Shown here piece after piece: positions 2,835 to 56,270 of a stretch of DNA of 64,000 nucleotides. Made by a program: the position numbers and the translations under genes. Below the pieces are notes generated by a model, which did not search any database, had not been told where the DNA came from, and was given only the letters and a program-made list of their open reading frames with translations. Numbering within the stretch: the first letter of the stretch is position 1; the number at the start of each line of letters is the position of its first letter. This stretch comes from Escherichia phage FL04: the sequence record PP358550. One strand, written 5' to 3'.

Positions 2835-2840
2835 AAACTG

Positions 2841-3734: not shown

Positions 3735-4020
3735 TATAAAACACTCACCGACCGGAAAGGGGTCGGTGATCTTCAATGACGATAAACCGTTAATCTTAAT
3801 TCGTAATGGTGACTGGACATTGCATGATACCCGTGTTACTATCCATTCACCGCCTAAAGAGATTCAACGGGAATTGGTTAGGATCACCCTAACTGATAGG
3901 CATAAAGAGGCGGTAGGCTATTCTCTTTTGAAATTAGGTGTTGACTTTCCTTTCGAGTATACGCTAACATTCAGAGAGCAGTCAGTGAAGCTAACAGAGA
4001 TTCTATTCTCTGAGATATGA
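3727..4020 (+). CDS. hypothetical protein
   Basis: ATG 3727 (track start 3724 is TTG). Confidence 0.5.
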   Translation: MISIKHSPTGKGSVIFNDDKPLILIRNGDWTLHDTRVTIHSPPKEIQRELVRITLTDRHKEAVGYSLLKLGVDFPFEYTLTFREQSVKLTEILFSEI

Positions 4021-4030
4021 GGATTATATA

Positions 4031-4462
4031 ATGGTTTATCCAACTCCTAGTAAGATTTACATTGACGATACTCATTTTCTTGTTGAAATTATGGGTATAA
4101 AGTTTAGTGGTAATGTTAAAATTGTAGAATGGGAATTGCACGGTCAACCTGTAACCGATTATGACCATTACATTCCTTTTTTGGGTGATGACAATTTTGT
4201 CTCGTTTGACCATGAAGGTTACATGATCTTTGAACAGTCTGACGTACCGACCTATCTAGCAATGATGCAAATTCCTACGAAGGTTTCTGTTGCTGAGGGT
4301 GATTGCGATTGTTGCGGTTGGTATACTGTAACAGATATTAAGCTGCCATCCGGTAAAGAACTCTATAACGAAGACCATTTTGGAAACTGCAATTTTCCGT
4401 GTGATTGGGATGAATTTTTCGAACTGGTAGAGATTGAGCGAACTTATTTGAGGAAGGGATAA
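4031..4462 (+). CDS. hypothetical protein
   Basis: GAGGATTATATA-ATG start; Cys cluster CDCCGW. Confidence 0.55.
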   Translation: MVYPTPSKIYIDDTHFLVEIMGIKFSGNVKIVEWELHGQPVTDYDHYIPFLGDDNFVSFDHEGYMIFEQSDVPTYLAMMQIPTKVSVAEGDCDCCGWYTVTDIKLPSGKELYNEDHFGNCNFPCDWDEFFELVEIERTYLRKG

Positions 4463-5274: not shown

Positions 5275-5282
5275 GGTATAAC

Positions 5283-5564
5283 ATGGTAGAAATTTTTGGT
5301 TTTGAAGGTTACAACTGTAAGTATTGCCAGAATGCAAAGCGCCTTTGTGAATCGCGTAAGATCCCTTACATCTACATTCCGGTTAATGATGGTGTTGACG
5401 AAAACGGTCGCCCTGTAAAGATTGATTCTGTCATTGCCGATATTCAGGATCGAGCAGGGGTAGAAGTTATTGCCACCATGCCGCAGATTTTCTATAATGG
5501 TGATTATATTGGTGGCTTTGATGAGTTCCGATCCTTTGTAGTCAAAAACAAGATTAATGGTTAA
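5283..5564 (+). CDS. nrdC: NrdC-like glutaredoxin/thioredoxin
   Basis: CKYCQNAKRL redox motif and TMPQIF..GGFD match T4 NrdC; sits upstream of gene 49 as in T4. Confidence 0.8.
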   Translation: MVEIFGFEGYNCKYCQNAKRLCESRKIPYIYIPVNDGVDENGRPVKIDSVIADIQDRAGVEVIATMPQIFYNGDYIGGFDEFRSFVVKNKING

Positions 5565-5588
5565 ATACCTTCTTTGGAGGGTGAATTT

Positions 5589-6062
5589 ATGTTACTGACT
5601 GCTAAGAGTGCTAAAGAGTACAAACAAGAACTATTCGAAAAACAGGGGGGCATTTGCCCCCTTTGTCAATTGCCACTTTTTGAGGATATGAGCAAAAACC
5701 ATCTTGACCATGATCATGATCTAGATGGGAAAGGGCAAGGCCGAGTAAGGGGATTGCTTCATTCGTGTTGCAACCGCCTAGAAGGATCGTTGACCGGAGA
5801 CTTTAAACGGTTTGGTGTTGGTGCTTTAGGTGCTGATTTCGTTGTTTGGGCTACAAACTATGTTAATTACATCAAAGGAGACTACACCAACAATCATTTA
5901 CATCCTCAATATGCTGTTGATAAAGTAAAACGATTTTCACGCTTGACACGCGCGGAGATGGTTGCTATTATGGACGCAGAGGGTTTCGATTACTGCGACG
6001 CTGATACACGAGAAGAAATCACGAAGAAGTATAAGAAACAATTCATACAAAGATTAAGATAG
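5589..6062 (+). CDS. 49: endonuclease VII (Holliday junction resolvase)
   Basis: HLDHDHD..G.VRGLLH.CCN motif and overall similarity to T4 gp49. Confidence 0.9.
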   Translation: MLLTAKSAKEYKQELFEKQGGICPLCQLPLFEDMSKNHLDHDHDLDGKGQGRVRGLLHSCCNRLEGSLTGDFKRFGVGALGADFVVWATNYVNYIKGDYTNNHLHPQYAVDKVKRFSRLTRAEMVAIMDAEGFDYCDADTREEITKKYKKQFIQRLR

Positions 6063-6065
6063 TAG

Positions 6066-6094
6066 TTGACAATAAGAAATGGGAGTAGTAAAAT
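6066..6094 (+). promoter_or_regulatory. sigma70-type promoter with GGGAGTA/TACTCCC dyad around -10
   Basis: TTGACA 6066-6071, spacer 17, TAAAAT 6089-6094; palindrome 6081-6100. Confidence 0.6.
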
Positions 6095-6125
6095 ACTCCC
6101 ATCTAATCAAGAAGGAGAATCAACA

Positions 6126-6398
6126 ATGCGTAAGATGTTTAAATCCGGTGTGGCCTATGTTTTTAAATCTGAGCAAGCACATAAAGACTTCTTAGATGAT
6201 GAATACGAAGGGGTGAAAGATACCTACGAAGTCATCAAGAATGGGTTTACTGTTCTTAAAGTGTCACCTGTTGGTTATGTAAGTGAAATAGCGGTTGATG
6301 GGAAAACATACACCGCTAAAGACTTTGACCCGCGTTGGGAATTTATGCTGCTTCCGTGTGAGCGCATTCTGTTCCGTGCTGTTCAATTAGTGAAATGA
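6126..6398 (+). CDS. hypothetical protein, multi-copy ~90-aa domain family (single domain)
   Basis: ATG 6126 after AAGGAGAATCAACA; shares G.YxF.......F...V..GF.VL.V...G.V..I..DG..YT pattern with at least 8 other genes. Confidence 0.6.
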   Translation: MRKMFKSGVAYVFKSEQAHKDFLDDEYEGVKDTYEVIKNGFTVLKVSPVGYVSEIAVDGKTYTAKDFDPRWEFMLLPCERILFRAVQLVK

Positions 6399-6412
6399 TA
6401 GAGGATTATATT

Positions 6413-6973
6413 ATGGTACAGAAAACGTATAAATTGTATCCGGCTAAGTCTTCAAATGATGCTGTTTTTGAACGAGGTCGTTATTACACTTTCCGTAGTG
6501 CAGAAACAGCCGCAGAATTTATCAAACGATGTCCGCAACATAATAAGTTCTTGTATGACGTGCTTTGTAACGGCTTTAAAGTTCTCACTGTTGATGCGAT
6601 GGGGCGTGTGTATCTGGTAGAAACTCATGGGTATGAAGGTGCATCTGTTCTGATTGCTGCAAACGAGCGCAAATACTTTAAACGCATCACTAAAAAGCAG
6701 TTTGAAGAAATGAAACCAGTTAAGAAAGAAGAATCTCTGGAAGATCTGATTAACTTGTTTGGTAAAGTTCGCTCTATCTCCTTTGCGATTGAAGATGACA
6801 TTACCGACAATAAAATCTTTATCAAGAACGCGGAAGACCTGAAAGAGTTCCTTATTGAAAATAGATCTCGACTGGAAACCTTTCTTGAAAGTGAAATTAT
6901 TCGACATGATACCTACGCTAAATTCAGCGCCGAGAAAGTGGAAGAACTGAAAGAGATTAAAAAGTCACTTTAA
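6413..6973 (+). CDS. hypothetical protein, multi-copy domain family (domain plus helical C-terminal tail)
   Basis: GAGGATTATATT-ATG start; contains NERKYFKRI motif. Confidence 0.6.
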   Translation: MVQKTYKLYPAKSSNDAVFERGRYYTFRSAETAAEFIKRCPQHNKFLYDVLCNGFKVLTVDAMGRVYLVETHGYEGASVLIAANERKYFKRITKKQFEEMKPVKKEESLEDLINLFGKVRSISFAIEDDITDNKIFIKNAEDLKEFLIENRSRLETFLESEIIRHDTYAKFSAEKVEELKEIKKSL

Positions 6974-6976
6974 CGC

Positions 6977-7005
6977 TTGACATGATGAAACGGGAGTAGT
7001 AAGAT
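6977..7005 (+). promoter_or_regulatory. sigma70-type promoter with GGGAGTA/TACTCCC dyad
   Basis: TTGACA 6977-6982, spacer 17, TAAGAT 7000-7005; palindrome 6992-7011. Confidence 0.6.
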
Positions 7006-7036
7006 ACTCCCATCTAAACAACGAGAGGATTATATT

Positions 7037-8215
7037 ATGGCTAAATTCTTTGAAGGTCATTACTATGCATTCCGTGAAGGCGGAAAAGATGAGTTTCTAG
7101 ACTTTTCTCGCTATTCAATTATTCTGACCGATGCTTCGCGCCGTGGTCATATTCGGGTTGCTGAAATCGTAGAAAAGGGCTTTAAAGTATTAGAAAAAGA
7201 TGACCACGGTCATGTTATTACTATTGAAGCTGGAGATGTAGTTTATTCCGCTAATGATATTGTTGATTATTGGGCTACTATGATTATGCACAATGAGCGT
7301 AAATACTTTAAACGCATCTCAAAAGAGGCATACGAAGCGATGAACAAGAAAGAGGATGCAATGCCGACTTACTTTGAAAAAGGTAAATGTTATTCGTTTA
7401 CCCCAGAAGGTTTGCAAGAATTTAAGCGATTCTGGGGAGAGCATGATCCAGATCACAAAGAAGCTATGAAACTTGTTGATTTTGTCGAATATGGCTTTTT
7501 AGTTGAAGAAGAATTGCACGGATCAGCTACCATGATCACCGCGAAAGGTGAAACTGTTAAGGCAGATCGTTTTTGTGATCAATGGAATTGCTTGTTTGAC
7601 GGTAGCGAATTTGAATACTTCGCGGAAATCACGAAACAACAATTTCATTCTATGCAAGCGGATGGTCAGAGATTTAAAGTAGGTGAACGCTACAAGCCAA
7701 ATCAGCATAATTTGCCATATTGGTTTACCGCTGAAACTGTATCAAGTCATGTTGTTGAAATTGTTCAAAAGCTGGGACAAGGATTTAAGGTGACTAAAGT
7801 AGATGATTATGGAAGTGTTGACGCGGTTGAAATTGATGGTGTAGAATATACACCGAAATCATTCGGGCTTTGCTGGTATCACCTGATCAGCAATGATGAA
7901 CGTTATAACTTTGTTGAACTGCCATCTGAACCGGAAGAAGCACTAGAAGATCATGATCATCTGTCTGAACTGGTTAAGCTGTTTGGTGATCTGCCGGATG
8001 GTGTAGGCGTGGCGGTAATGGGTGAAGGTGCTGTTATTCGAAACCTGAAAGACTTTAAAAAGTTCTTGATTGACATGCTGCCTAAACTTGATGATAATCT
8101 CGATACAGATATTCAGAATCGCAAAGAAATTGTTAAAGAGACTGAAAAAGAGATTGAAGAGATTCGAGCAATTCGCCAGAAGGTGAAAGCAGTAAAGAAA
8201 AAAGTTAGTGCTTGA
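7037..8215 (+). CDS. hypothetical protein, multi-copy domain family (three tandem domains plus C-terminal tail)
   Basis: 392 aa; internal repeats with HNERKYFKRI / EYFAEITKQQF / ERYNFVEL motifs. Confidence 0.65.
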   Translation: MAKFFEGHYYAFREGGKDEFLDFSRYSIILTDASRRGHIRVAEIVEKGFKVLEKDDHGHVITIEAGDVVYSANDIVDYWATMIMHNERKYFKRISKEAYEAMNKKEDAMPTYFEKGKCYSFTPEGLQEFKRFWGEHDPDHKEAMKLVDFVEYGFLVEEELHGSATMITAKGETVKADRFCDQWNCLFDGSEFEYFAEITKQQFHSMQADGQRFKVGERYKPNQHNLPYWFTAETVSSHVVEIVQKLGQGFKVTKVDDYGSVDAVEIDGVEYTPKSFGLCWYHLISNDERYNFVELPSEPEEALEDHDHLSELVKLFGDLPDGVGVAVMGEGAVIRNLKDFKKFLIDMLPKLDDNLDTDIQNRKEIVKETEKEIEEIRAIRQKVKAVKKKVSA

Positions 8216-8239
8216 CATGCGAAGGGAGTATGCTATAAT
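8212..8239 (+). promoter_or_regulatory. sigma70-type promoter with GGGAGTA/TACTCCC dyad
   Basis: TTGACA 8212-8217, spacer 16, TATAAT 8234-8239; palindrome 8224-8245. Confidence 0.6.
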
Positions 8240-8269
8240 ACTCCCACTTAACAACGAGAGGATTATATT

Positions 8270-8764
8270 ATGTGGGTACAAGATGTTTGGTATACTGTAA
8301 CTAAAGAAAACCTTGACGCATTCAGCGACCAATCTTGCGCTAATAGCTCAATTGCTGGTATACTTACTGATGTGTTTGGTGGTGTAGATAAAATTCGTTT
8401 TAAAGTTGTTGTTAATTCTATGGGGTGTGTAAAAGACCTATACACCGAAGATAAAGACCTTGATCTTGAACTTCGTCTTCGTATTGATAATGCAAGTCTA
8501 GGTTATTGGTTTGAAGATAACGAATATGAATACTTCACACCAGCAATTAAAGTTTTTGCGACTAAACTGGAAGCTGTACTGAATCTCCGACCAATTAATG
8601 TTGACGGTTACATTATCAAAAATATTCAGGATTGGGAGTTGTATCTAGATCAGGTTATCCGAAATAGTAAGCAGGATGCCGCTAATAAGAAGCGACAAGA
8701 GATTAAACAGCTTAAAGCTGAACTAGAAGCTAAAGAAAAAGAATTAGCAGAACTGGTAAAATAA
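8270..8764 (+). CDS. hypothetical protein with C-terminal coiled coil
   Basis: GAGGATTATATT-ATG start; KQLKAELEAKEKELAEL tail. Confidence 0.55.
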   Translation: MWVQDVWYTVTKENLDAFSDQSCANSSIAGILTDVFGGVDKIRFKVVVNSMGCVKDLYTEDKDLDLELRLRIDNASLGYWFEDNEYEYFTPAIKVFATKLEAVLNLRPINVDGYIIKNIQDWELYLDQVIRNSKQDAANKKRQEIKQLKAELEAKEKELAELVK

Positions 8765-8773
8765 CTATCAACG

Positions 8774-8796
8774 AGCGGGAGAAATCCCGCTTTTTC
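8774..8796 (+). terminator. rho-independent terminator
   Basis: GCGGGA-GAAA-TCCCGC hairpin followed by TTTTT. Confidence 0.6.
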
Positions 8797-8808
8797 ATAG
8801 GTGATACA

Positions 8809-10671
8809 ATGGAAAAACTAATCAAAGACATTACAGAGATCGCAACGGGTAAAGAAAACGAAGTGAGCAAAGAGAACGCGAACAAAGACGCGCGAACATT
8901 CCCGACACGTCGAGATCTGATTGCTGGCGCTGTGTCTAAACAGATTGCTAAAACCGTGTTACCTGAGCACATCTATAAAGCGCATGTAGACGGTGATATT
9001 CATTATCATGATATGGATTATGCACCAGCTATGCCGTTTACTAACTGCTGTCTTGTTAATCTCAAAGACATGTTAGAGAATGGTTTTAAATTGGGTAGCG
9101 CACAAATCGAAAGTCCGAAATCAATCGGCGTTGCTTGTGCTGTAACCGCTCAAATTATCGCACAGGTGGCAAGTCATCAATATGGCGGGACCACAATTGC
9201 AAACATCGATCAGGTTTTAGCGCCATACGTTGAGAAAACATATCATAAACACCTTGCTGATGCCGAAACCTACGGAATCAAAGCTGATACTCTCTATGCA
9301 CAAGAGAAGACAGAAAAAGAAACGCTAGACGGGTATCAAGCGTTGGAATATGAAATCAACACTTTGTTCTCCACCAACGGTCAAACGCCTTTTGTGACTT
9401 TAACCTTTGGTATGGGTACTAGCTGGGAAGAAAAACTGATTCAGAAAGCGATCCTGAAAGTTCGAACTAAAGGTTTAGGTAAAGATGGTATAACTCCGGT
9501 GTTTCCTAAGCTGGTGATGTTCTTAGAAGAAGGATTAAACCTTAAACCGGAAGATCCGAACTACGACATTAAGCAACTTGCATTGGAATGTTCTAGTAAG
9601 CGTCTTTACCCTGATTATATCTCTGCGAAGAATAACCGTAGTATCACTGGATCTAGTGTTCCGGTTAGCCCGATGGGTTGTCGTAGCTTCCTGGGTGTGT
9701 GGCATAATGAGAAAGGCGAAGAAGTATTAGACGGACGTAATAACTTAGGTGTTGTGACTCTGAATCTTCCGCGTATTGCCCTTATTGCCGCGCGTCGTGC
9801 TGGTAAAGCGTCTGTAATGCGCAGAATTGAGCTATTCGAACAAGAGCTAGCTAATCGTATGCCTATTTGCTTTGATGCGCTCATGAGTCGCGTAGACGCT
9901 TTAAAAGGGGCTAAAGCCAATGTTGCTCCGGTGCTGTATACAGAAGGTGCATTTTTCCGTATTCATCAAAACGATGAAATTTTGGAAGTGCTGAAAGATG
10001 GTCGCGCTAGTATCTCTCTTGGATATATTGGTTTACATGAGGTATTGAGCGTCCTGTTTGGTGTTCATCCGTTTGATTCGGAAGATGCGCAGCGATACGG
10101 TAAACATATTCTTAAGATCTTGCGTCATTATACTGAAAAATGGAAGGACGAAACCGGACTTGGGTTTAGTCTTTACGGTACGCCAGCCGAGAGCCTTTGC
10201 TATCGATTTAATCGACTGGACCGAGAGCAATTTGGTATTGTTAAGGGTGCTACCGATAAAGACTGGTACACCAACTCATTCCACCTTGACGTAGACCGGA
10301 AAGTCACTCCATTTGAGAAAATCGACTTTGAGAAAGATTATCACTGGCTGGCGTCCGGTGGCATGATCTCTTATGTTGAGTTCCCAGACATGAAAAACAA
10401 CCTGAAAGGTCTTGAAACTGTAGTGGACTATGCAATGGATAAATTGCACTACTTCGGTGTTAATACTCCTTCTGATGTGTGTCATGTATGCGGGTCTACT
10501 AAGGAAATGAGAGCGACCGAGTTTGGTTTTGTTTGTCCTGATTGCGGAAATGATAATCTGGAAAAGATGAATGTTATCCGTCGCGTTAGTGGATATCTTG
10601 GATCTGTTGATCTGCGTCCATTTAACCACGGGAAACATTCCGAGATGGTAAACCGCGTTAAGCACATGTAA
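8809..10671 (+). CDS. nrdD: anaerobic ribonucleoside-triphosphate reductase
   Basis: 620 aa; C-terminal Zn ribbon (CHVCGS...CPDCG) and glycyl-radical motif RVSGYLG. Confidence 0.95.
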   Translation: MEKLIKDITEIATGKENEVSKENANKDARTFPTRRDLIAGAVSKQIAKTVLPEHIYKAHVDGDIHYHDMDYAPAMPFTNCCLVNLKDMLENGFKLGSAQIESPKSIGVACAVTAQIIAQVASHQYGGTTIANIDQVLAPYVEKTYHKHLADAETYGIKADTLYAQEKTEKETLDGYQALEYEINTLFSTNGQTPFVTLTFGMGTSWEEKLIQKAILKVRTKGLGKDGITPVFPKLVMFLEEGLNLKPEDPNYDIKQLALECSSKRLYPDYISAKNNRSITGSSVPVSPMGCRSFLGVWHNEKGEEVLDGRNNLGVVTLNLPRIALIAARRAGKASVMRRIELFEQELANRMPICFDALMSRVDALKGAKANVAPVLYTEGAFFRIHQNDEILEVLKDGRASISLGYIGLHEVLSVLFGVHPFDSEDAQRYGKHILKILRHYTEKWKDETGLGFSLYGTPAESLCYRFNRLDREQFGIVKGATDKDWYTNSFHLDVDRKVTPFEKIDFEKDYHWLASGGMISYVEFPDMKNNLKGLETVVDYAMDKLHYFGVNTPSDVCHVCGSTKEMRATEFGFVCPDCGNDNLEKMNVIRRVSGYLGSVDLRPFNHGKHSEMVNRVKHM

Positions 10672-10676
10672 TTTTC

Positions 10677-10705
10677 AGCCGATCCGAAAGGGTCGGCTTT
10701 TTCGT
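10677..10705 (+). terminator. rho-independent terminator
   Basis: AGCCGATCC-GAAA-GGGTCGGCT hairpin plus T-run. Confidence 0.6.
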
Positions 10706-10714
10706 TTTGGGGTG

Positions 10715-10742
10715 TTGACAACCTGATTAGCTAATGTATAAT
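10715..10742 (+). promoter_or_regulatory. sigma70-type promoter (extended -10)
   Basis: TTGACA 10715-10720, spacer 16, TGTATAAT ending 10742. Confidence 0.55.
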
Positions 10743-10771
10743 GCTCACATCGAAAACAACGAGAGGACAAC

Positions 10772-11314
10772 ATGATGATGATGTTTTGTGTACTGAGCAA
10801 AGAAGTTAAACTTCGTAAACTGGAAATTGGCGATGGTGTTGTTGTTAAAATGCACGCTAGCACATTGGCTAGTTTTAATTTAAAGGAAAGTTTTTTTATT
10901 AGAGGAACGGTGGTTAATATCTGCTGGAGTCAATGCGAAGGAATCCGTAGCTTTTGCGTAATTGACGATGATAATAACCTGTATGTGATTCGCTATCATA
11001 ATAATTCTGTATTGGTCTATACCGACAATTCACGAGAATTATATACTCTTGAATTTGTTAAGCGTACTGATTGCGACCTATTTGTTCGTGCTTATGAAGA
11101 AGATGGCTGTTTTGCGACTGAAACAGAAACAAATGAATATGTTCCTATGGAAGTAGGGGCAGAAATTAAACACAAGATCACGGATCGTATTTTTAAGGTT
11201 GTGGCGGTTGCTCATACTCAATTTGTAGCGCAAGCGCCGGATGAAGAATTTATTATCTACAATATTGGTAATGCAAGTTCTCATTTTCATAATGTACTAT
11301 ATCGCGACCTTTGA
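10772..11314 (+). CDS. hypothetical protein
   Basis: ORF after AGAGGA RBS, in the nrdD-nrdG gap. Confidence 0.5.
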   Translation: MMMMFCVLSKEVKLRKLEIGDGVVVKMHASTLASFNLKESFFIRGTVVNICWSQCEGIRSFCVIDDDNNLYVIRYHNNSVLVYTDNSRELYTLEFVKRTDCDLFVRAYEEDGCFATETETNEYVPMEVGAEIKHKITDRIFKVVAVAHTQFVAQAPDEEFIIYNIGNASSHFHNVLYRDL

Positions 11315-11331
11315 TAATGTGTGAGGTGAAT

Positions 11332-11859
11332 ATGAAATCATTAAACCGTAAGCGTAAAGCACAACGACACAAAGAACGAGCTAAAAAGATTGCTATTGAA
11401 CTCTGTGAGCGTGAGGATAGCTATTTGTCTACTGGTCGTTTGTATACATTCCATGCATTGATTGATGGTAAGCCAGTGTTGCATAATCATGATTGCTTGG
11501 CACTGTTTCACGAGATCGAACCAATCCATCGTGAATGGGATGACAACAAAGCAAAAGGTCAATATTTCCTTACGTGTTCGTGTGGTCATGCTGGTTGTGC
11601 TGGATATTGGGAACCTGTTACTATCCGTGAGAAAAATGATGCCATTCAATGGGTCTCCCGTACCCGCGATGGTTATGATAAAGGGGTTGATGGTACTGGC
11701 GATAACGTAGTTTACTTTAATCGTGATTGGTATTATATGGCGCGATGTATGATCCTGTTTTATCTTGACTCGATGCCGTATGAATATTTCAGTTTCCAGA
11801 ATGGGACCGAACTGACAGGGAAGGAATGGTCTGAATACATTCGAAAAAATTTAAAATAA
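11332..11859 (+). CDS. hypothetical Cys/His-rich protein
   Basis: ATG 11332 after GAGGTGA; CSCGHAGCAGYW cluster. Confidence 0.5.
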   Translation: MKSLNRKRKAQRHKERAKKIAIELCEREDSYLSTGRLYTFHALIDGKPVLHNHDCLALFHEIEPIHREWDDNKAKGQYFLTCSCGHAGCAGYWEPVTIREKNDAIQWVSRTRDGYDKGVDGTGDNVVYFNRDWYYMARCMILFYLDSMPYEYFSFQNGTELTGKEWSEYIRKNLK

Positions 11860-11863
11860 ATGC

Positions 11864-11892
11864 TTGACGGGGATCGCGAGATCCCCTATACT
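11864..11892 (+). promoter_or_regulatory. sigma70-type promoter with GGGGATCGCGAGATCCCC palindrome in spacer
   Basis: TTGACG 11864-11869, spacer 17, TATACT 11887-11892; two GATC sites. Confidence 0.6.
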
Positions 11893-11934
11893 ATATTCAT
11901 CAAGACGAGATACAACTTTACAGGAGAATCAAAT

Positions 11935-12087
11935 ATGTGGACTTTACTGATTTGGGAAACTGAAAACGCACAAGTAGAAATCCGTGAATACGAATACCTA
12001 AGCCCAGCTTATCTATTGGCATCTCGCGGTGGTTACTATAAAGCGCAGATTGTAAACGAGTTCGGGGTAATTGAATATGAGTTCTGA
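11935..12087 (+). CDS. hypothetical small protein
   Basis: ATG 11935 after CAGGAGAATCAAAT RBS; overlaps nrdG start. Confidence 0.35.
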   Translation: MWTLLIWETENAQVEIREYEYLSPAYLLASRGGYYKAQIVNEFGVIEYEF

Positions 12088-12580
12088 TACATACGGCAAA
12101 CTACGCTATGCCGATATTAAAGATTGTGATATGGTTAACGGTGAGGGAGTGAGAGTCTCCCTTTACGTTACCGGATGTTCACACGCATGTGATGGTTGCT
12201 TTAATGCTAGCCTACTCAATCCTAAGAACGGGGAACCATTCACCGATGATACAATGGGATTGATTCTGGATCTGCTTAGACCTGGTTTTATTCAGGGGCT
12301 AACATTCTTAGGTGGCGATCCATTGTATAAACGCAATTTAAAGGGTGTACAGCGGATCATCGATGAAGTAAAATCATGGATGCCAAATAAAGATATTTGG
12401 CTATGGTCTGGTTATACCCTTGACCAATTGAATGATGAGCAAAGAAAAATTGTAGAATCAGTTGACATGTTCATCGATGGGCGTTATATTAAAGATATGC
12501 CGACGAAGAAGCCGTGGCGGGGGTCTGACAATCAAGTACAATACAAGATTGTTAATAGTATTCCAGTAAAAATTATTTGA
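12071..12580 (+). CDS. nrdG: anaerobic ribonucleotide reductase activating protein (radical SAM)
   Basis: CSHACDGC radical-SAM cysteine motif; size and context match T4 NrdG. Confidence 0.9.
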   Translation: MNMSSDTYGKLRYADIKDCDMVNGEGVRVSLYVTGCSHACDGCFNASLLNPKNGEPFTDDTMGLILDLLRPGFIQGLTFLGGDPLYKRNLKGVQRIIDEVKSWMPNKDIWLWSGYTLDQLNDEQRKIVESVDMFIDGRYIKDMPTKKPWRGSDNQVQYKIVNSIPVKII

Positions 12581-12590
12581 GGTGATTGCT

Positions 12591-13079
12591 ATGAAATGGG
12601 AATTGGGTAAGATGTACACTCTTGATGGTGATGAGAAGAAAGCAGAATTTACCAAATCTGAACTGTCAATCAACCGTCAAGTTGCTGAGTTTCTTGATGG
12701 ACGTCCTTTTACAGTCGAGGTTATGAGTAATGAGGGTCATGTTCTTGAAATCTCGTTAAGTGATGGTAAATGTATTTCTGTTCGAGACACTCCAATTGGT
12801 GCGCACGGTGCATGGTTTTGGGCTGGTGAACGTCGATTCTTTAAAGAAGTTAAAGAACCAGATCTAACTTTAGAACGTCTGGGTCTGCTTATGGAAGCCT
12901 ACGACATTCAGTTAATCGATAAGACGGGGTTACAACATAGTATTGCCAAAATTACTACCCTAGAAGGTATTAAGAGCGTTCTAAATGGTATGCCTAGCCG
13001 GATTGGTGCTATCCGCGAATACAAGCAAACGCGAGACCGTATGATCCAATTAGAATCACGTATCAAAAATGAGAGATAA
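12591..13079 (+). CDS. hypothetical protein, multi-copy domain family (domain plus helical tail)
   Basis: MKWELGKMYT...WFWAGERRFFKEV; first of four tandem family genes. Confidence 0.6.
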   Translation: MKWELGKMYTLDGDEKKAEFTKSELSINRQVAEFLDGRPFTVEVMSNEGHVLEISLSDGKCISVRDTPIGAHGAWFWAGERRFFKEVKEPDLTLERLGLLMEAYDIQLIDKTGLQHSIAKITTLEGIKSVLNGMPSRIGAIREYKQTRDRMIQLESRIKNER

Positions 13080-13083
13080 TATT

Positions 13084-13569
13084 ATGAAATGGGAAGAAGG
13101 TAAGACCTATGCGTTGGTTGGCGAATACGAAAAGCGTATTTTGCGTGATTGTTGGAGTTACGAACAAAGACCTAATATTGATGGTATGTTTACATATCTA
13201 GATAAACCATTTACTGTCGCTACGGTAGACCGTTGGGGTAATGTGCGTTCAATCTATAATCACGAAGGGGATTATATTAGTTCTATCGATATTGGTGATA
13301 ATATATGGTTTTCCGATGGTGACCGAGCGTGCTTCAAAGAAGTTTTATTACCTGGTCATGAATATGATCTAATAGACCTTCTCAAATTGGCGATGGATAA
13401 TTATAAAATTCGCTTTGAATGCAAATCACATGCGGCTATCGGTGCTAACGCCTTGCGTCATATCTCCAGTTTTGAAGAGTTGAAAGATTTTCTTGACAAA
13501 ATGCCGGAAAGAGTGCAAGCTATACAGGAAGCCGAGAAAGCATTAAACGAACTTGATAAAATCGGTTAA
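13084..13569 (+). CDS. hypothetical protein, multi-copy domain family
   Basis: MKWEEGKTY...DRACFKEV; tandem paralog. Confidence 0.6.
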   Translation: MKWEEGKTYALVGEYEKRILRDCWSYEQRPNIDGMFTYLDKPFTVATVDRWGNVRSIYNHEGDYISSIDIGDNIWFSDGDRACFKEVLLPGHEYDLIDLLKLAMDNYKIRFECKSHAAIGANALRHISSFEELKDFLDKMPERVQAIQEAEKALNELDKIG

Positions 13570-13581
13570 GGGGAATATATT

Positions 13582-14415
13582 ATGAAATGGGAAATTGGTA
13601 AAACTTACACCTGGAAAGATGAAAACGCTAAAACTGAGTTTATTACTAACGGAGAAGGTGTTCTTTCTCCACTTAACAGCGATATTAGTGCAGCTATTGG
13701 TGACAAGCCATTTACCATCATCGAGATCGAGGGTAACGGTTGGATTGATGCAATAGAGCTAGACGGTGTTTATCATACGGCGAAAACTGCTACAGGAAAA
13801 GACATTTGGACTGCAACATATTTCTTTAGTCCATTCGATAGAAAATTCTTTCGTGAAGTTGAAGAAGTTCCTCCTAAATGGGAAGTTGGTAAAACTTATA
13901 CTTGGAAAGATGAAGACGCAAAAGTGATGTTTTCTAGTATTGGTCATATTACCAATCGTAAAATTGCTGAGTGGATAGGAGATGATACTTTTACGGTATC
14001 TTCCGTTGATTCTGTTGGCATCGTTACTATGATCGACGTCAATAATGAGAGTGCTTGCGGAACATTTAATCCTCATTCAGCGGGTGTTGATGATGTTGAT
14101 GCTGTGTGGTTTGTTGAGCGTGAACGAAAATTCTTTCGTGAAGTTGAAGCAGTGAAAGAACCAGAAGAAAAGGTGAACGATGATTCTAAGATCGTTGGAC
14201 AGTTGAAACGTCTGTTTAGTAGTCGTTACGGCCTGACAATGGTTAAATTTGGCGAAGCAAATGAAGGTAAAACCTTTGAACGTTTCGATGATTTCATCGC
14301 AGCACTTGACAAGATGGACGAAATAATGCAAGATCGCCAGAAGATTAAAGACCTTCAAGAAGACATTAAACGTCGTGAAGTTGAATTTTTGATTGGTAAA
14401 GAGCGAGGATGGTAA
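13582..14415 (+). CDS. hypothetical protein, multi-copy domain family (two tandem domains plus tail)
   Basis: Two internal copies: KWE(I/V)GKTYTWKDE...RKFFREVE. Confidence 0.65.
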   Translation: MKWEIGKTYTWKDENAKTEFITNGEGVLSPLNSDISAAIGDKPFTIIEIEGNGWIDAIELDGVYHTAKTATGKDIWTATYFFSPFDRKFFREVEEVPPKWEVGKTYTWKDEDAKVMFSSIGHITNRKIAEWIGDDTFTVSSVDSVGIVTMIDVNNESACGTFNPHSAGVDDVDAVWFVERERKFFREVEAVKEPEEKVNDDSKIVGQLKRLFSSRYGLTMVKFGEANEGKTFERFDDFIAALDKMDEIMQDRQKIKDLQEDIKRREVEFLIGKERGW

Positions 14416-14416
14416 T

Positions 14417-14896
14417 ATGTTTGTTGTTGGTATGACCTATCAGTGGAAAAACGAGCGAGCGCGGAAAGTCTTTGCAACCAGTGTTGCAAATGATGCAATA
14501 GCAGACTTTATCGGTGACCGTACATTTAAAGTTATCGCTTTTGAAAAAATTGCGTCAGATATCGAATATGTTTCTGCGATTGAAATTGATGGAAAAACAT
14601 ACACCTGTCGAGATGTTGATGATGTACGGGAATACGCGCACAACTGGTTTTTGCAATCAGAAGAACGTTATTTTAAAGTGGTGTCGTCAGAACTGACTAC
14701 TGATGCAATGTTGGAACAATTCTTCAATAACTACGAAGTTTCTGTACGTCGCTATGGCGAAGAAGAAGTGTTTAAAATCGATGATTACAATCAGTTTAAA
14801 CGAGTATTCGCCACTAAGTTGCAGCGTGACTTTGAACGTGACCAACGGATCAAGGAACTGGAAGAAGAACTAGAAAGATTAAAGGCTGAGAAATGA
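14417..14896 (+). CDS. hypothetical protein, multi-copy domain family
   Basis: ATG 14417 after GAGGATGG; EERYFKVV motif; coiled-coil tail. Confidence 0.55.
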   Translation: MFVVGMTYQWKNERARKVFATSVANDAIADFIGDRTFKVIAFEKIASDIEYVSAIEIDGKTYTCRDVDDVREYAHNWFLQSEERYFKVVSSELTTDAMLEQFFNNYEVSVRRYGEEEVFKIDDYNQFKRVFATKLQRDFERDQRIKELEEELERLKAEK

Positions 14897-15162
14897 TCGA
14901 GATATACGGCATACCGAAAGAGGCTTATCATTGTTATGGTTGTATTAGTGCAATGAAGCTACTGGATGACCTGGGTATTCCGTATACACTTAAACCAGTA
15001 TTCAAGCAGGTCGGGGTTGACATTATTCCCGACCGTGATATGATTGAAGAACTGGCGTGGAGGCTGAACTCAAAGAGCCTCCGATTTGTATACCCCCAGA
15101 TATTCATTGACAACGAGCACATTGGAGGCTATAAAGAACTGAGGGCGATTTATGATTATTGA
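14893..15162 (+). CDS. nrdH: glutaredoxin-like protein
   Basis: CYGC redox motif, PQIF..GGY glutaredoxin signature; position after nrdG. Confidence 0.75.
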   Translation: MIEIYGIPKEAYHCYGCISAMKLLDDLGIPYTLKPVFKQVGVDIIPDRDMIEELAWRLNSKSLRFVYPQIFIDNEHIGGYKELRAIYDY

Positions 15163-15310
15163 GAATTTAGTTTCGGTATTCATTATTGCTTTATTTGCTA
15201 TAATGGCTTTACCGTTTAAGAAGTGTAAACACTGTAACGGAACAGGATTGCGTGGTGATGGGTGTTGCGCTCATTGTCACGGATCTGGTAAAGTAAGTAT
15301 CATTAAGTAA
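15152..15310 (+). CDS. small membrane-anchored protein with two CxxCxGxG zinc-finger motifs
   Basis: Not in ORF track (52 aa); GAGGG RBS 6 nt upstream; N-terminal hydrophobic helix then CKHCNGTG...CAHCHGSG. Confidence 0.4.
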   Translation: MIIENLVSVFIIALFAIMALPFKKCKHCNGTGLRGDGCCAHCHGSGKVSIIK

Positions 15311-15331
15311 TTCTTGAGTGAGGAATATATT

Positions 15332-15619
15332 ATGTTAGTACACAATGCAATCGCACACATGGTTTACTCTCGATTTGGGTGCATGGAAGAAATCAATATT
15401 ACCGACGCGGATTTAGATCTGATGCAAGTCGAAGGTCAGACATATCTGAAAAATAACGGCGTGAATATCGGTAAAGCGCGTGTGCGTGAATTGTTGGTTG
15501 AATATATTCTCTCTGAATTTGGCATTAGTGCTTTCGGTGTGAAAGAAATTGCACCTAAGCGCGAAATTTCTGATAAAATGATCAAGAAATGCCAGAAAGC
15601 ACGACGTAAGGGTTTCTAA
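15332..15619 (+). CDS. hypothetical protein
   Basis: ATG 15332 after GAGGAATATATT. Confidence 0.5.
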   Translation: MLVHNAIAHMVYSRFGCMEEINITDADLDLMQVEGQTYLKNNGVNIGKARVRELLVEYILSEFGISAFGVKEIAPKREISDKMIKKCQKARRKGF

Positions 15620-33037: not shown

Positions 33038-33210
33038 TTGGATTTAAACAGTTTGTTGAAGAAAATAAACTCAAAGAAGATATGACCGCTGGCGATGCTG
33101 GCGGCAATCCTGAGAAGATCGCAGCAGGGGAAACGAGCGGATCTATTACCAATCGTGGACCTAGTGTAGCGGGTAAAGAAAAACGCAAAAAGGAGAAAGA
33201 CGGTGCTTAG
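33034..33210 (+). CDS. hypothetical small protein
   Basis: 58-aa ORF (below track cutoff), ATGA overlap with upstream stop. Confidence 0.3.
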   Translation: MIGFKQFVEENKLKEDMTAGDAGGNPEKIAAGETSGSITNRGPSVAGKEKRKKEKDGA

Positions 33211-33361
33211 TATCATCATGTTTATCGTTGGCTTGCTGTCCGCTATTGTCGGTGTTGTTGTTTTCGGATTATCTGGACACAAAACAAAAACAGAAAAGTT
33301 ATCCGAGATCACAATGTATGTTGGTGTAGTTCTCATTCTGTTGTCGGTGGCGCTTAAATGA
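33203..33361 (+). CDS. hypothetical small hydrophobic (two-helix) peptide
   Basis: GTG start after AGGAG; 52 aa with two hydrophobic stretches. Confidence 0.35.
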   Translation: MLSIIMFIVGLLSAIVGVVVFGLSGHKTKTEKLSEITMYVGVVLILLSVALK

Positions 33362-50215: not shown

Positions 50216-50386
50216 ATGAACTGGTATAAAATTTGGAAAAATCAGGTGGAGGCTTATCTAGGGTATAAGCCCACCGACAAAGAATTACTTGATGCAATGT
50301 ATGAAGACGGACTAAATCCGAAAGTAGCCGCGCAAGAATACGCGGAATGGGTGAAGGTCGAAGATAACCTAAAGAGGAAACTATGA
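50216..50386 (+). CDS. hypothetical small protein
   Basis: ATG 50216; track ORF 50147 overlaps upstream gene. Confidence 0.4.
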   Translation: MNWYKIWKNQVEAYLGYKPTDKELLDAMYEDGLNPKVAAQEYAEWVKVEDNLKRKL

Positions 50387-50607
50387 AGAAAATGATTGCG
50401 ATTGCTTTGTTGGCGAGCGCATGTACTGTAAATGCTAACACCGCAGCGATGGTCGCGGCTGTAACTGCCGCAAATGCTTCCGTTATGGCATCGCAAGAGG
50501 CAGCACGCCAGCAAGCACAACAAGAAGCCAAGCGAAAAGCACATGAGGCGACGAAAAATTTTCACGAAAATAACAAAAAACTAGTTGACGCCAAAGGTCA
50601 TCGGTAG
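50383..50607 (+). CDS. small secreted protein, probable lipoprotein
   Basis: N-terminal signal peptide MKKMIAIALLASAC with lipobox-like ASAC, then Ala/Gln-rich mature part. Confidence 0.5.
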   Translation: MKKMIAIALLASACTVNANTAAMVAAVTAANASVMASQEAARQQAQQEAKRKAHEATKNFHENNKKLVDAKGHR

Positions 50608-51168: not shown

Positions 51169-51178
51169 AAAATAGTTG

Positions 51179-51207
51179 TTGACAGGGGATCGCCGATCCC
51201 CTATAAT
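51179..51207 (+). promoter_or_regulatory. sigma70-type promoter with GGGGATCGCCGATCCCC palindrome as spacer
   Basis: TTGACA 51179-51184, spacer 17, TATAAT 51202-51207; two GATC sites. Confidence 0.6.
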
Positions 51208-51238
51208 GAACTCATCAAGACAACGAAGGAGAATCAAA

Positions 51239-51394
51239 ATGAAACATACTCACAAATTAATGGTTAAATTTGAAGGCGCTAAGGGATATGAACGTTACGG
51301 TGTATTCTTCTCTGAGGATGATGCATGGGATGCTGGTTTGGCGACGTTCGCCGAGCACAACAACATTGAAGACTTTACTGTAGAAGAAATTTAA
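51239..51394 (+). CDS. hypothetical small protein
   Basis: ATG 51239 after AAGGAGAATCAAA; track ORF start 51176 runs through promoter. Confidence 0.45.
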   Translation: MKHTHKLMVKFEGAKGYERYGVFFSEDDAWDAGLATFAEHNNIEDFTVEEI

Positions 51395-51401
51395 AAAGTA
51401 T

Positions 51402-51430
51402 TTGACATCGGATTAAGGGAGTAGTAAGAT
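51402..51430 (+). promoter_or_regulatory. sigma70-type promoter with GGGAGTA/TACTCCC dyad
   Basis: TTGACA 51402-51407, spacer 17, TAAGAT 51425-51430; palindrome 51417-51436. Confidence 0.6.
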
Positions 51431-51464
51431 ACTCCCATCAAGACAAAACACTGAGGAATATATT

Positions 51465-52211
51465 ATGAAAAACATTATCGCTGCTATCGTTCTTTCTGCT
51501 ACTGCTTTCGGTGCTAACGCTGCGTCCTTTGATTGCGCTAAAGCTACTACCAAATCAGAGAAGTTTATTTGTGCTAATGAGTCTATCTCCGCACTGGACT
51601 CTAAACTTCATGAGGTGTATGTTAAGGCTGTTAAGATTGATCCGTCTCTGAAACAAGAGCAACGAAACTGGAATAAAACTGTTCGTGATACAATGATCAA
51701 TATCGGGCAGATTCAGCCACTGGAGGCTGTATATAACGCTCAAATCCAAAACTTGATGAATGTATTACCTAAAGAAGAAAGCGATTCAGAGACTTCTGCG
51801 AAGGTTGAAGAAGAACAACCGAAACAGGAAGCAAAAGTGGTAGAAGAACCGAAGGTCGAAACTTTTACCTATCAATGCACCGTTCGTTATGAGTGGAGTA
51901 TGAAAGATGGAATTTCCACAAAAATTAAAGAGGCTCCACTGTATGCAAAATATGGAAACCAGCCAGGGGATCTTAAAGTAACCATTAAAAATGGGAAGAT
52001 GGTTGATTTTGTATACATTGATGAATACAACGTACACAAAGCAAACGTACAAGAAACCGTTATGACTAAAGGCGGGTTTTATAAGAATGTTGGCAAGAAA
52101 GATCTATATGAATACTCCGTTTTCGAACCAAACGACGGAACTATTCGATTTGAAAAACGTCATCCTACATTCGGTGGCGCAATTGATGTAGATCAATACG
52201 TTTGCAAGTAA
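51465..52211 (+). CDS. secreted (periplasmic) protein with possible LprI/DUF1311-like N-terminal domain
   Basis: Signal peptide MKNIIAAIVLSATAFGANA; then C..A.T..E.FIC...S...LD..L..VY pattern; GAGGAATATATT-ATG. Confidence 0.6.
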   Translation: MKNIIAAIVLSATAFGANAASFDCAKATTKSEKFICANESISALDSKLHEVYVKAVKIDPSLKQEQRNWNKTVRDTMINIGQIQPLEAVYNAQIQNLMNVLPKEESDSETSAKVEEEQPKQEAKVVEEPKVETFTYQCTVRYEWSMKDGISTKIKEAPLYAKYGNQPGDLKVTIKNGKMVDFVYIDEYNVHKANVQETVMTKGGFYKNVGKKDLYEYSVFEPNDGTIRFEKRHPTFGGAIDVDQYVCK

Positions 52212-52222
52212 GAGGTTAAATT

Positions 52223-52495
52223 ATGCAATTCAATAACATGAAGATTACAAAAGATTGGTGGAAGGCGATGCAAGATACTCCAGAAACCAAATTAAGCGAG
52301 ACAACAACCACAATACAAGTTGATTACGAAGATCCGAAAGACATATACAGAGAGCTTATAAAAGCTGGAAACTATCAAACACCAGATGGCCTTATTGACA
52401 TGATGGTTAAAGGTCTGTATAGTGGTAAAAATCCAGATATTTTACCGTGGTACGAGGGATATTTTAAAACATATCGTGACCACAACCGAAAATAA
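52223..52495 (+). CDS. hypothetical protein
   Basis: ORF after GAGG RBS. Confidence 0.45.
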   Translation: MQFNNMKITKDWWKAMQDTPETKLSETTTTIQVDYEDPKDIYRELIKAGNYQTPDGLIDMMVKGLYSGKNPDILPWYEGYFKTYRDHNRK

Positions 52496-52720: not shown

Positions 52721-53089
52721 ATGGAAATTCAAAACAATTACGAAAAATGTGTTATTATCAATGATCTGCAACGTCAATTGCATCATTACGAAACCGATTA
52801 TAAAACAGCAACCAAAACCGGAAAGCTGAAAGTGTGGGAAGTCTGGTATAACCGGAACTATCTGGGAAGCATCCACAAACTTGATCGCAGTGATGTTTAT
52901 ACAATGCATGTGGGCGCGTGTGGCGAATCGGATGTAGCATCTAATTTCATGGAAGCACTTGCATTCTATGTAGAATATCTGGTAGACTATATCGAGTTGG
53001 AAGAGGAAGTGGTAGAATTGCTTCCTCCACCGGAAGAAGCGCCGGAAGCAACGATCCTGAAAGCATTAAAGAAAATCTTTGTTAAGTGA
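52721..53089 (+). CDS. hypothetical protein
   Basis: GAGGATTACATC-ATG. Confidence 0.5.
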   Translation: MEIQNNYEKCVIINDLQRQLHHYETDYKTATKTGKLKVWEVWYNRNYLGSIHKLDRSDVYTMHVGACGESDVASNFMEALAFYVEYLVDYIELEEEVVELLPPPEEAPEATILKALKKIFVK

Positions 53090-53889: not shown

Positions 53890-54213
53890 ATGATCGAGTT
53901 TGAAATTGACAACTTTCACGAAAAAGCAGAAGACCTAACCAAAATTTTGATTAGTCGAGGTGCATATAATACGAAAGATATTATAAAAGAAGTTAATGTA
54001 GCGATGGACGCGATCCGAAAGGAATTTAAACATATTTCAGCGATTGGAGAAAATGGTCATCTTGAAGATGTTGAGCTGGTAGCACTGCGACGCTATTACT
54101 TCTTTGTTGATTGCATCATTGATCTAGCTAAAAATTATAGTCATTACATGAAAGATATTGTAAACGATGCACGTAAGTTGGCAGAGAATGTTTACGGGAA
54201 GTTTCCAGAATGA
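53890..54213 (+). CDS. hypothetical protein (paralog of 53443..53775)
   Basis: ATG 53890 after AGAGG; shared C-terminal motif. Confidence 0.5.
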   Translation: MIEFEIDNFHEKAEDLTKILISRGAYNTKDIIKEVNVAMDAIRKEFKHISAIGENGHLEDVELVALRRYYFFVDCIIDLAKNYSHYMKDIVNDARKLAENVYGKFPE

Positions 54214-54458
54214 AATTAGAACAAGCGATTGTATACTTTGAGATGGGCTATGATATTGCTCGTGTAGAGTGGGAAGATGGTGATTTTGTCCGATTGATTG
54301 ATCTTCCAGAAACAGCTATTGCACTGGTCAAAGTAGAAAACGGCATACAACGAAATTACGCGTTTTCTGACGAAGACAAACAAGCCGATGACTGGTACGC
54401 TACCTGTTTTCATCATACAGCGTCAAAATGTGATTCAGGGGCTTCTATGCGCCAATAA
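54210..54458 (+). CDS. hypothetical protein
   Basis: ORF, last plus-strand gene before convergent terminator. Confidence 0.45.
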   Translation: MKLEQAIVYFEMGYDIARVEWEDGDFVRLIDLPETAIALVKVENGIQRNYAFSDEDKQADDWYATCFHHTASKCDSGASMRQ

Positions 54459-55487: not shown

Positions 55488-56270
55488 CTAAACAGCCGGT
55501 CCGTAAATAGCTCCGCGATTTTGCCACGTTGGAGAAGACCCTATAACAGCATATCCAGAATCGCCGCCATTATATTCAGATCCTTGACCACGAATATTAC
55601 ATCTACCTCCTGCGGCGCCTACCTCACCACCGCTTCCACCATTATAGATACCGTTCACGGACCCCGAACCGGGCGCATAAAGAGTACCAGCAGTTGCGCC
55701 TGATTGCATATCAATAGATCCGCCCGGCGCACCAAACGGACGCCCACCGCCACCGCCAAAGGTTAATCTCATTTGTGAAAAAGGAGAATAATACCCACCA
55801 CCGCCACCGCCACCGCCACCTGCAATAGCTCCACCATTATTAATTCTTAGTCTCCCACCAATATCATTTTGAATACAATGCCCACCGGCTGATCCAGGAC
55901 CATTGCTACCGCCATTCCCGCCACGACCATACATCGTTACGCCATGTATATTCAACTGAACATATTCATTCGGTGTATCTCCGTACATAAAGAATAAAGG
56001 AACATCTTTAGAATATGATACTAAATCTCCAGTGATATTAAACACTATAGGTGTACTACCTGCTTCAAAGCATCTATCACGGAACCACTGACCGTTGAAG
56101 TTATGGTCTGCACCAAGTGTATGAATAATTTCTCGCGAGCGACCTGCAAATTGACTCATCCAGCAAGGAACACCCAATCTTAATTGACCAGCCGCTTGAC
56201 TCATCCATCTTTGTCCTGTTTCATTTGCGGCTGAACTTCCAATCCAACCAGGAACACCAACTACTGCCAT
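55488..56270 (-). CDS. 38: long tail fiber tip adhesin gp38 (T2-type, glycine-rich motifs)
   Basis: 260 aa with multiple poly-Gly blocks ([26 protein letters not shown]) between conserved segments; position after gene 37. Confidence 0.8.

Follow-up and report, generated by a model that had tools for sequence, protein, structure and literature searches.

The open reading frame (ORF) at positions 51465–52211 (+) of a 64,000-nt stretch of DNA from Escherichia phage FL04 (PP358550; the whole stretch is called the window below) encodes an early-expressed, exported, two-domain periplasmic protein of 248 residues. The protein consists of a DUF1311 head that is under purifying selection and a disulfide-type β-barrel that is swapped by recombination. 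It is common to virulent Krischviruses and to a prophage integrated in hicB, where it is carried as a moron, and the same allele types are found in both. We tentatively propose that it is a candidate factor for superinfection exclusion or against lysis from without, a role that is quite possible.

Nucleotide identities of 96–97% with ELT4, W115, and RB49 place the window in the genus Krischvirus, among the RB49-like phages of the T4 group. The gene is the orthologue of RB49p262 and of ORF262 of phage phi1 and belongs to PHROG 14799 (unknown function). A Shine-Dalgarno motif (GAGG, 51453–51456, +) was read from the sequence 8 nt upstream of the ATG. The gene is part of the hyperplastic region that is flanked by the gene for the gp52 topoisomerase and the holin gene t; the distance to t is 2.3 kb and the two genes are transcribed divergently. 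More than 100 phage records contain the gene, and the orthologues of RB49p262 and phi1 ORF262 are annotated as "hypothetical protein" in all phage records. The UniProt/BFVD name for the RB49 protein is already "LprI-like N-terminal domain-containing", and E. coli homologues are named "lysozyme inhibitor LprI family protein" in RefSeq. A search of 5.8 billion proteins recovered 20 homologues of the 248-residue protein, and NCBIfam and PADLOC scans yielded no meaningful match. The presence in more than 100 phage records, together with a ratio of nonsynonymous to synonymous substitution rates (dN/dS) below 0.15 for the N-terminal domain, shows that this is a genuine conserved gene. Purifying selection and broad conservation rule out a non-functional ORF.

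The N-terminus, MKNIIAAIVLSATAFGANA/ASFDC, has the features of a Sec signal peptide that is cleaved by signal peptidase I (residues 1–19; 51465–51521, +), i.e., a basic n-region (K2), a hydrophobic core of 15 residues, and an A-x-A site, with predicted cleavage at ANA/ASFDC. It was also marked by a crude scan. A lipobox (L-[AS]-[GA]-C) is absent from the N-terminal sequence, which rules out a lipoprotein. The mature N-terminus ASFDC is invariant across all homologues. It opens a helical N-module of the DUF1311/LprI family (residues 20–104; 51522–51776, +), which was delimited by Pfam, AlphaFold2, alignment, and dN/dS. The Pfam profile PF07007 scored 24.1 bits with the whole protein (E = 5e-5) and 26.2 bits with the N-domain alone (E = 1e-5), compared to a gathering cutoff of 22 bits; the match spans only profile positions 1–71 of 106. 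The same profile was matched by all 8 of the 8 diverse phage homologues of the module (best E = 8e-8). The module could be aligned over its whole length with 25 modules of bacteria and phages, the bacterial ones being compact (about 80 residues), and A1, S2, F3, D4, C5, K7, A8, E13, C17, D26, Q47, and W50 are invariant in this alignment. The DUF1311 signature C-x3-T-x2-E-x3-C ... LD..L..Y ... Q..W ... R is found across the module. Cys24 and Cys36 are retained in the phage module, and the second Cys pair of the family (C-x4-C after Q..W..R) is not present; M77...Q-P-L stands in its place in Krischviruses. At least 90% of the sampled bacterial members have the second pair, and it is also missing in the homologues from Klebsiella and Aeromonas phages, ev099, and SSU5. 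Its loss defines a derived phage subfamily. AlphaFold2 predicted four helices at residues 30–98 with a predicted local distance difference test score (pLDDT) of about 80. Foldseek with the N-domain gave weak matches only, and comparison of the full protein, the N-domain, and an N-module profile with PDB sequences gave only noise and retrieved no solved DUF1311 structure.

The head is followed by a Glu/Lys/Pro-rich linker (residues 105–130; 51777–51854, +), which AlphaFold2 predicts to be disordered (pLDDT below 50 for residues 104–127). The linker length differs between alleles, and at 51777–51790 the window has a deletion of four residues (TASE) compared to RB49 and most homologues. For residues 131–248 (51855–52208, +; allele type A), AlphaFold2 predicts an 8-stranded β-barrel. 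Modelled alone, the C-domain of about 110 residues reached a pLDDT of 89.8 and a predicted template modelling score (pTM) of 0.82. Cys138 (51876–51878) and Cys247 (52203–52205), which are the sole invariant Cys residues in all alleles, are located on the first and the last predicted strand, and a putative disulfide between them would staple the barrel. No Pfam family matched the C-domain, even at E ≤ 10. Among 1.84 billion representative proteins, a profile of the domain matched no others than its own family and, as an artefact, a Calx-β repeat, and its lone match in the PDB, a helical PhoU protein, was rejected as spurious. The barrel scores about as well against unrelated outer-membrane, lipocalin, and designed barrels as against those of the MliC/ACP type, and it also resembles the surface-lipoprotein barrels NHBA, fHbp, and TbpB. 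The first-pass annotation of this DNA had described a signal peptide, a Cys-containing region resembling the LprI/DUF1311 family, a Glu/Lys-rich linker, and a β-rich C-terminal domain. All four parts hold, with the domain assignment lying above the Pfam cutoff and the β-rich domain taking the form of a confidently modelled barrel; what had been overlooked is the likeness of this barrel to lysozyme inhibitors in fold.

Comparison of the homologues did not yield uniform results for the two halves of the protein. The N-terminal 120 residues or so are almost invariant; the C-terminal 110 or so belong to at least four types that cannot be recognised as related to one another and that keep no more than Cys138, Cys247, one Gly, and a few aromatic residues. 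At the syntenic Krischvirus locus, type A occurs in RB49-like phages (44 records), type B or C in Phi1, GEC-3S, E26, and others, and type D in JSE. In the codon analysis, the N-module had dN values of 0–0.027 and dS values of 0.05–0.24, and the linker was similar. The dS of the barrel was saturated (1.7–2.0 or undefined), even among members of the same type, and the dN/dS within types was about 0.22. The jump in dS falls at the linker/barrel boundary, with a breakpoint zone within the linker at about 51823–51860. Because dS is saturated as well and the within-type dN/dS is low, the alleles do not result from a recent burst of substitutions, and a fast-evolving domain under positive selection is ruled out. 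The barrel alleles are ancient lineages that have been recombined onto a young, strongly constrained backbone. Hypervariability restricted to loops was likewise rejected, because the entropy of the C-domain alleles was nearly equal in strands (1.73) and loops (1.83).

Possible genetic partners of the barrel within the phage genome were also compared. The barrel allele does not track the gp38 adhesin of its own phage, as no covariation was found: the gp38 of this window is present in only 5 Krischviruses, and the type-A allele, with its 44 records, is combined with two or more gp38 adhesins that differ greatly. Nor is the barrel paired one-to-one with the downstream gene ORF261, because Phi1 and JSE have the same ORF261 type and different barrels. 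The gp38 gene of the window lies at 55488–56270 (−). Its product is 94–96% identical to gp38 of many Tequatroviruses (T2/T6-like, Shigella, and Yersinia phages), and at least 98% identity was found in only five Krischviruses, i.e., LF73P4 (100%), MIZ4, MIZ5, KMB43, and FL15. This distribution looks like a cross-genus adhesin swap.

The gene is not confined to virulent phages. A chromosomal copy was found in 26 of 5426 complete E. coli genomes. In O55:H7 DEC5A, C325, and E275, the copy is the terminal gene of a hicB prophage, with capsid, portal, and terminase genes upstream, which is a typical moron position, and it has an AT-rich upstream region of its own. In DEC5A (locus 1–15350) and at three further loci, the prophage encodes capsid, portal, and a gpA-type terminase, and the antitoxin gene hicB is truncated while hicA is intact; in strain E275, the end of the prophage contains an insertion sequence (IS) element (DDE_Tnp_1). 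The neighbours of the E. coli copies are prophage and hicAB genes, and neither an effector gene nor a type VI secretion system (T6SS) context was found at any copy examined. The DNA homology between phage and E. coli starts 6 nt upstream of the ATG and stops inside the linker (query positions 444–481). In many strains it returns at the 3′ end, where a second BLAST piece extends up to query position 881. This right-hand conserved flank (52196–52265, +) comprises the 3′ end of the coding sequence and the first 14 or so codons of ORF261, the 90-residue downstream gene (52223–52495, +). A truncated ORF261 remnant of 25 codons in the JSE-like form, MKFNNMKITKDWWDAMKANHQNDIN*, lies beside the E. coli prophage copies. 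The survival of this remnant indicates that the prophage copies descend from a Krischvirus-like phage. Counterparts of all three prophage alleles, B1, C2, and D, exist in contigs of lytic Krischviruses and are 93%, 71%, and 52% identical to them in the C-domain, respectively. Replacement of the barrel cassette uses two homology arms, the linker and the start of ORF261. Two divergent forms of ORF261 are found. RB49, W115, and this window have one, and Phi1 and JSE have the other; the first 17 or so residues, the last few residues, and a central ELI[KR]AGNYQTP motif are common to both.

Early expression is indicated by the promoter. The element at 51392–51438 (+), identified by a promoter scan, as a member of a repeat family, and by a pattern count, has a −35 box TTGACA (51402–51407), a 17-nt spacer, and a −10 box TAAGAT (51425–51430), matching the consensus at 10 of 12 positions. 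The palindrome GGGAGTAGTAAGATACTCCC at 51417–51436 (GGGAGTA...TACTCCC) encloses the −10 box. Copies of this repeat family (D2) start at 49869, 50575, 50888, and 51392, and the promoter cassette pattern has 5 exact copies in the window versus 0 expected by chance. The dyad-type early promoter that had been postulated for the gene is thus real, and it corresponds to a published class, the promoter-early stem-loop (PeSL) cassettes of RB49 and phi1, for which promoter and terminator activities have been demonstrated experimentally (PMC2839356). The element combines a sigma-70 consensus promoter with a stem-loop, has an AT-rich upstream region, and precedes an ORFan in the hyperplastic region, as is characteristic of PeSLs; it is of the subclass in which the stem-loop overlaps the −10 box. 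A second PeSL subtype is present at 51174–51212 (+), with a perfect sigma-70 match (12 of 12; TTGACA-17 nt-TATAAT) and a spacer consisting of the palindrome GGGGATCG/CGATCCCC. ORF263 (51 residues; 51239–51394) is under the control of this element. Two more exact copies of the PeSL subtype TTGAC-N10-GGGAGTAGTAANATACTCCC lie at 6066–6100 and 6977–7011 (+), far from the gp52–t region.

The same plan was found in proteins of 232–253 residues from Klebsiella and Aeromonas T4-like phages, the lambdoid phage ev099, and SSU5, i.e., a signal peptide, a DUF1311 module with the motif ASFDC-x-KA-x-T/S-xx-E-xx-IC, a charged linker, and a different C-domain with two Cys residues. These genes are always in the early region; in ev099 the gene is located between ea22 and xis/int. 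A search with a degenerate DNA motif revealed at least 120 loci in Proteobacteria and other phyla. Their products begin with a signal peptide and, with C-terminal extensions, are 110–550 residues long in total. PF07007 was passed by 97 of the 113 bacterial proteins sampled, and most of their C-termini have no Pfam family. The only recurrent C-terminal partner was DUF3298 (17 of 113 proteins, with PdaC in 3). In RsiV, an anti-sigma factor, DUF3298/PdaC forms the ectodomain that binds lysozyme (PMC5014341), and LprI of M. tuberculosis consists of DUF1311 plus MliC, of which the MliC domain suffices for lysozyme resistance (PMC7933661). These fusions show that the N-module has repeatedly been coupled to lysozyme-binding domains of unrelated folds.

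How might such a protein act? The protein is soluble, periplasmic, and produced from the first minutes of infection. We hypothesized that it would serve as a guard by binding and neutralising peptidoglycan-cleaving enzymes arriving from outside. The main targets would be the tail-tip lysozymes of superinfecting phages, possibly also T6SS muramidase effectors, and the outcome would be superinfection exclusion and resistance to lysis from without, i.e., the job of Spackle in T4. The variable barrel would be the specificity module against variable enemies, analogous to the barrels of MliC, PliC, and the Neisseria protein ACP, whereas the constant DUF1311 head would contact a conserved partner such as the genus-invariant gp5 lysozyme, peptidoglycan, or a host hydrolase. 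A conserved backbone that carries deeply diverged alleles, as here, is what specificity determinants of conflict systems typically show.

From what is known of the family, we infer that the protein binds peptidoglycan hydrolases. All documented roles of DUF1311 proteins relate to periplasmic hydrolases of peptidoglycan. The DUF1311 protein Etsi4 of enterohaemorrhagic E. coli protects cells against Etse4, a T6SS toxin that acts in the periplasm, and LprI-domain proteins have been predicted to be immunity partners of lysozyme-like effectors. The periplasmic DUF1311 protein ScwA of Salmonella raises the level of MltD and causes lysis on overproduction, without conferring lysozyme resistance (PMC7933661). 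These links, together with the MliC and RsiV-type fusions, argue for hydrolase binding. RB49 also lacks Spackle. Spackle homologues are found in 927 phage records, but a tblastn search with a query 100% identical to T4 orf61.3 detected none in the window, in the interval between genes 41 and 61, or in the RB49 genome, the best E values of 0.019–0.049 lying inside gp41. The lack of Spackle, the capture as an independently transcribed terminal moron, the immunity roles of DUF1311 proteins, and the lysozyme-binding fusions lend circumstantial support to an exclusion role. The interval of T4 sp (61.3), flanked by the genes for the gp41 helicase and the gp61 primase, contains a 52-residue ORF in the window (33203–33361, +) with two predicted transmembrane helices and no similarity to Spackle.

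Several results weigh against the proposed guard. The protein has no Pfam match to PF09864 (MliC), hhalign of the C-domain against MliC/PliC, using an MliC sequence validated against PDB 2F09, returned a probability of 0.3%, and the motifs SxSGAxY and YxxxTKG are absent from the barrel; on the basis of Pfam, hhalign, and motifs, membership of the MliC family was rejected. A lone TKG at residues 204–206 occurs in allele A only and is not conserved. The variation of the barrel extends over strands and loops alike, with no focus on a binding face. No effector or partner gene lies next to the phage copy, whose neighbours are phage ORFans. DUF1311 alone is not known to act as a lysozyme inhibitor, and ScwA gives no resistance to lysozyme (PMC7933661). 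The "lysozyme-inhibitor domain" of the first-pass annotation was therefore overstated, since LprI owes its resistance to the MliC domain and ScwA gives none, and the present evidence does not warrant calling DUF1311 itself a "lysozyme inhibitor". Lastly, gp5 of RB49 contains a GH24 lysozyme domain that is 99–100% identical across Krischviruses of any allele (Phi1 100%, MIZ3 100%, JSE 99.5%). Since this domain is invariant across alleles, barrel variation cannot track the gp5 of the phage's own type, and such tracking was ruled out. If self-type gp5 is the target, only the invariant head can match it, and the barrel would be directed at something variable outside the genus, for example T6SS muramidases or the lysozymes on the tails of other phage genera, or at another target. 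In the RB49 genome (OZ035808.1), gp5 at about 143.3–143.9 kb was the only GH24 match in a tblastn search with T4 lysozyme, and no e-type endolysin was found at E ≤ 1e-3, which indicates that the RB49 endolysin belongs to another family.

The proposed guard can be extended to a whole class of polymorphic periplasmic exclusion or immunity proteins, although this generalisation appears unlikely as yet. The constant signal peptide and DUF1311 module would carry interchangeable target-binding cassettes on a flexible linker, each allele acting against a different muramidase or envelope-breaching machine, and the balanced polymorphism would be traded by linker recombination between virulent T4-like phages and prophages. 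The cassettes could be disulfide-stapled, MliC-like barrels here and other two-Cys domains in the Klebsiella, Aeromonas, lambdoid, and SSU5 phages.

Instead of an incoming enzyme, the barrel might bind the periplasmic side of an outer-membrane receptor or some other envelope protein and thereby prevent competing phages from adsorbing or delivering their DNA, with the DUF1311 head serving only as an anchor or scaffold. Such masking of receptor or envelope, of the type of T5 Llp, Cor, or TraT, would suit a periplasmic early protein in the moron position of a prophage, a polymorphic binding domain would suit diverse receptors, and the likeness to the barrels of NHBA, fHbp, and TbpB points in the same direction. 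However, the sequence contains neither a lipoprotein signal nor a membrane anchor, the co-occurrence of type A with very different gp38 adhesins shows that the allele does not follow the receptor specificity of its own phage, and nothing ties DUF1311 to outer-membrane proteins. Receptor masking is rather improbable. The same grade applies to a regulator of host cell-wall enzymes (lytic transglycosylases), similar to ScwA, or of the phage lysis machinery (the muralytic enzyme or the holin), which would stabilise the wall in the course of infection or time lysis. The effects of ScwA on MltD and on lysis, the proximity of the holin gene t, and an invariant N-module that would suit a conserved host or phage partner favour this idea. 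Nevertheless, the promoter is early and not late, the gene is divergent from t, a hypervariable, cassette-swapped domain is unexpected in a housekeeping regulator, and the prophage copies are isolated morons far from lysis genes.

Orphan immunity against bacterial weapons only, i.e., T6SS or bacteriocin muramidases, without any role between phages, has a low probability as well. T6SS immunity by DUF1311 proteins is supported experimentally for Etsi4 and predicted for others, immunity genes are typically polymorphic and horizontally mobile, and the prophage site would suit a moron that increases the fitness of the lysogen. But a virulent phage that expresses the gene strongly and early and has a short cycle would have little time to benefit, the surroundings of the copies lack effector genes and T6SS, and the E. 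coli copies, with their ORF261 remnant, clearly come from a Krischvirus-like phage. A barrel that binds a small molecule or lipid in a pocket of the calycin, YceI, or Cap15 type and sequesters an envelope lipid or signal is very improbable, because the fold matches are generic, cyclic-nucleotide signals are cytoplasmic while the protein is exported, and pockets are usually conserved, in contrast to alleles that share so few residues.

The genes around the ORF are all members of PHROGs of unknown function. A 74-residue ORF at 50383–50607 (+) has an N-terminus resembling a signal peptide or lipoprotein signal (MKKMIAIALLASAC...), an Ala/Gln-rich body, and no PHROG. It is also present in W115 ("putative membrane protein") and missing at that position in the RB49 reference, and its presence or absence is likely due to PeSL-mediated insertion or deletion. 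A 122-residue neighbour (about 52721–53089) is labelled Phage_T4_Y16F by precomputed Pfam matches in related Krischvirus contigs (L139 1563–1931, L141 4084–4452). A gene for about 82 residues just before the holin gene (about 54210–54458) has a faint or weak Tad2-like Pfam match (L139 2933–3178, L141 5460–5708) and could be a candidate anti-Thoeris sponge.

The DUF1311 assignment was already available from automated annotation, and the PeSL promoter class had been published. What is new is the predicted barrel, paired with DUF1311 as in LprI, together with a cassette polymorphism inside the gene, the exchange of alleles between lytic phages and prophages, and a wider family in which the head is constant and the tail variable. 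The locus would be a natural example of cassette exchange within a gene and not between PeSL-bounded genes. Krischviruses lack Spackle. If the proposed guard is correct, a head with a swappable barrel would represent a new type of superinfection-exclusion or anti-muramidase determinant in virulent phages and prophages, and it would provide a function for the widespread module of signal peptide and ASFDC DUF1311, which in bacteria is fused to MliC, RsiV-like, and other C-domains. For the design of phage cocktails, prophage-borne alleles might exclude therapeutic Krischviruses.

Among known systems, LprI (Rv1541c) has the same order of parts, with an export signal, an N-terminal DUF1311 domain of the same Pfam family, and a small C-terminal β-barrel. 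However, LprI is a lipoprotein, whereas the phage protein has no lipobox, a polymorphic C-domain that is not PF09864, a long charged linker, and no second DUF1311 Cys pair. MliC and PliC are periplasmic barrels of about 100 residues that are stabilised by a disulfide joining the first strand to the last and that have the motifs SxSGAxY (loop β4–β5) and YxxxTKG (β6) (PMC5507604). ACP of Neisseria has an MliC-like fold with a disulfide, lacks the motifs, and still inhibits lysozyme; inhibition thus does not require the motifs. PhiA of Brucella is, like ACP, an MliC/PliC look-alike without the motifs, and all of these proteins are periplasmic inhibitors of lysozyme or of peptidoglycan hydrolases. 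The phage barrel shares the antiparallel 8-stranded fold, the size of about 100 residues, the periplasmic compartment, and the Cys pair on the first and last strands with MliC, PliC, and ACP. In the model it thus resembles an inhibitor of the MliC/ACP type in architecture, without being a demonstrable family member.

T4 Spackle (gp61.3) is an early, Sec-exported, disulfide-containing protein that inhibits the gp5 tail lysozyme, and the phage protein is likewise early, Sec-exported, and periplasmic and has a Cys pair. The two proteins are not related in sequence or fold, as Spackle is a helical bundle of 75 residues that is highly conserved and non-polymorphic. Klebsiella T4-like phages have a Spackle homologue and a DUF1311 protein together, and therefore, the two are not strictly alternatives. 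The DUF1311 T6SS immunity proteins (Etsi4 and the orphan genes of Pantoea) and ScwA are similar in being periplasmic DUF1311 proteins that are tied to peptidoglycan-targeting enzymes; in contrast to the phage gene, they are chromosomal, either effector-adjacent or stand-alone, with a conserved set of Cys residues and no swappable C-domain. In its genomic setting, the gene is similar to the PeSL ORFan cassettes of RB49 and phi1 (Arbiol et al. 2010), as it lies behind a canonical PeSL in the gp52–t hyperplastic region, but the unit of exchange is here an intragenic C-domain cassette that extends from the linker to the start of ORF261, and not a whole PeSL-bounded gene.

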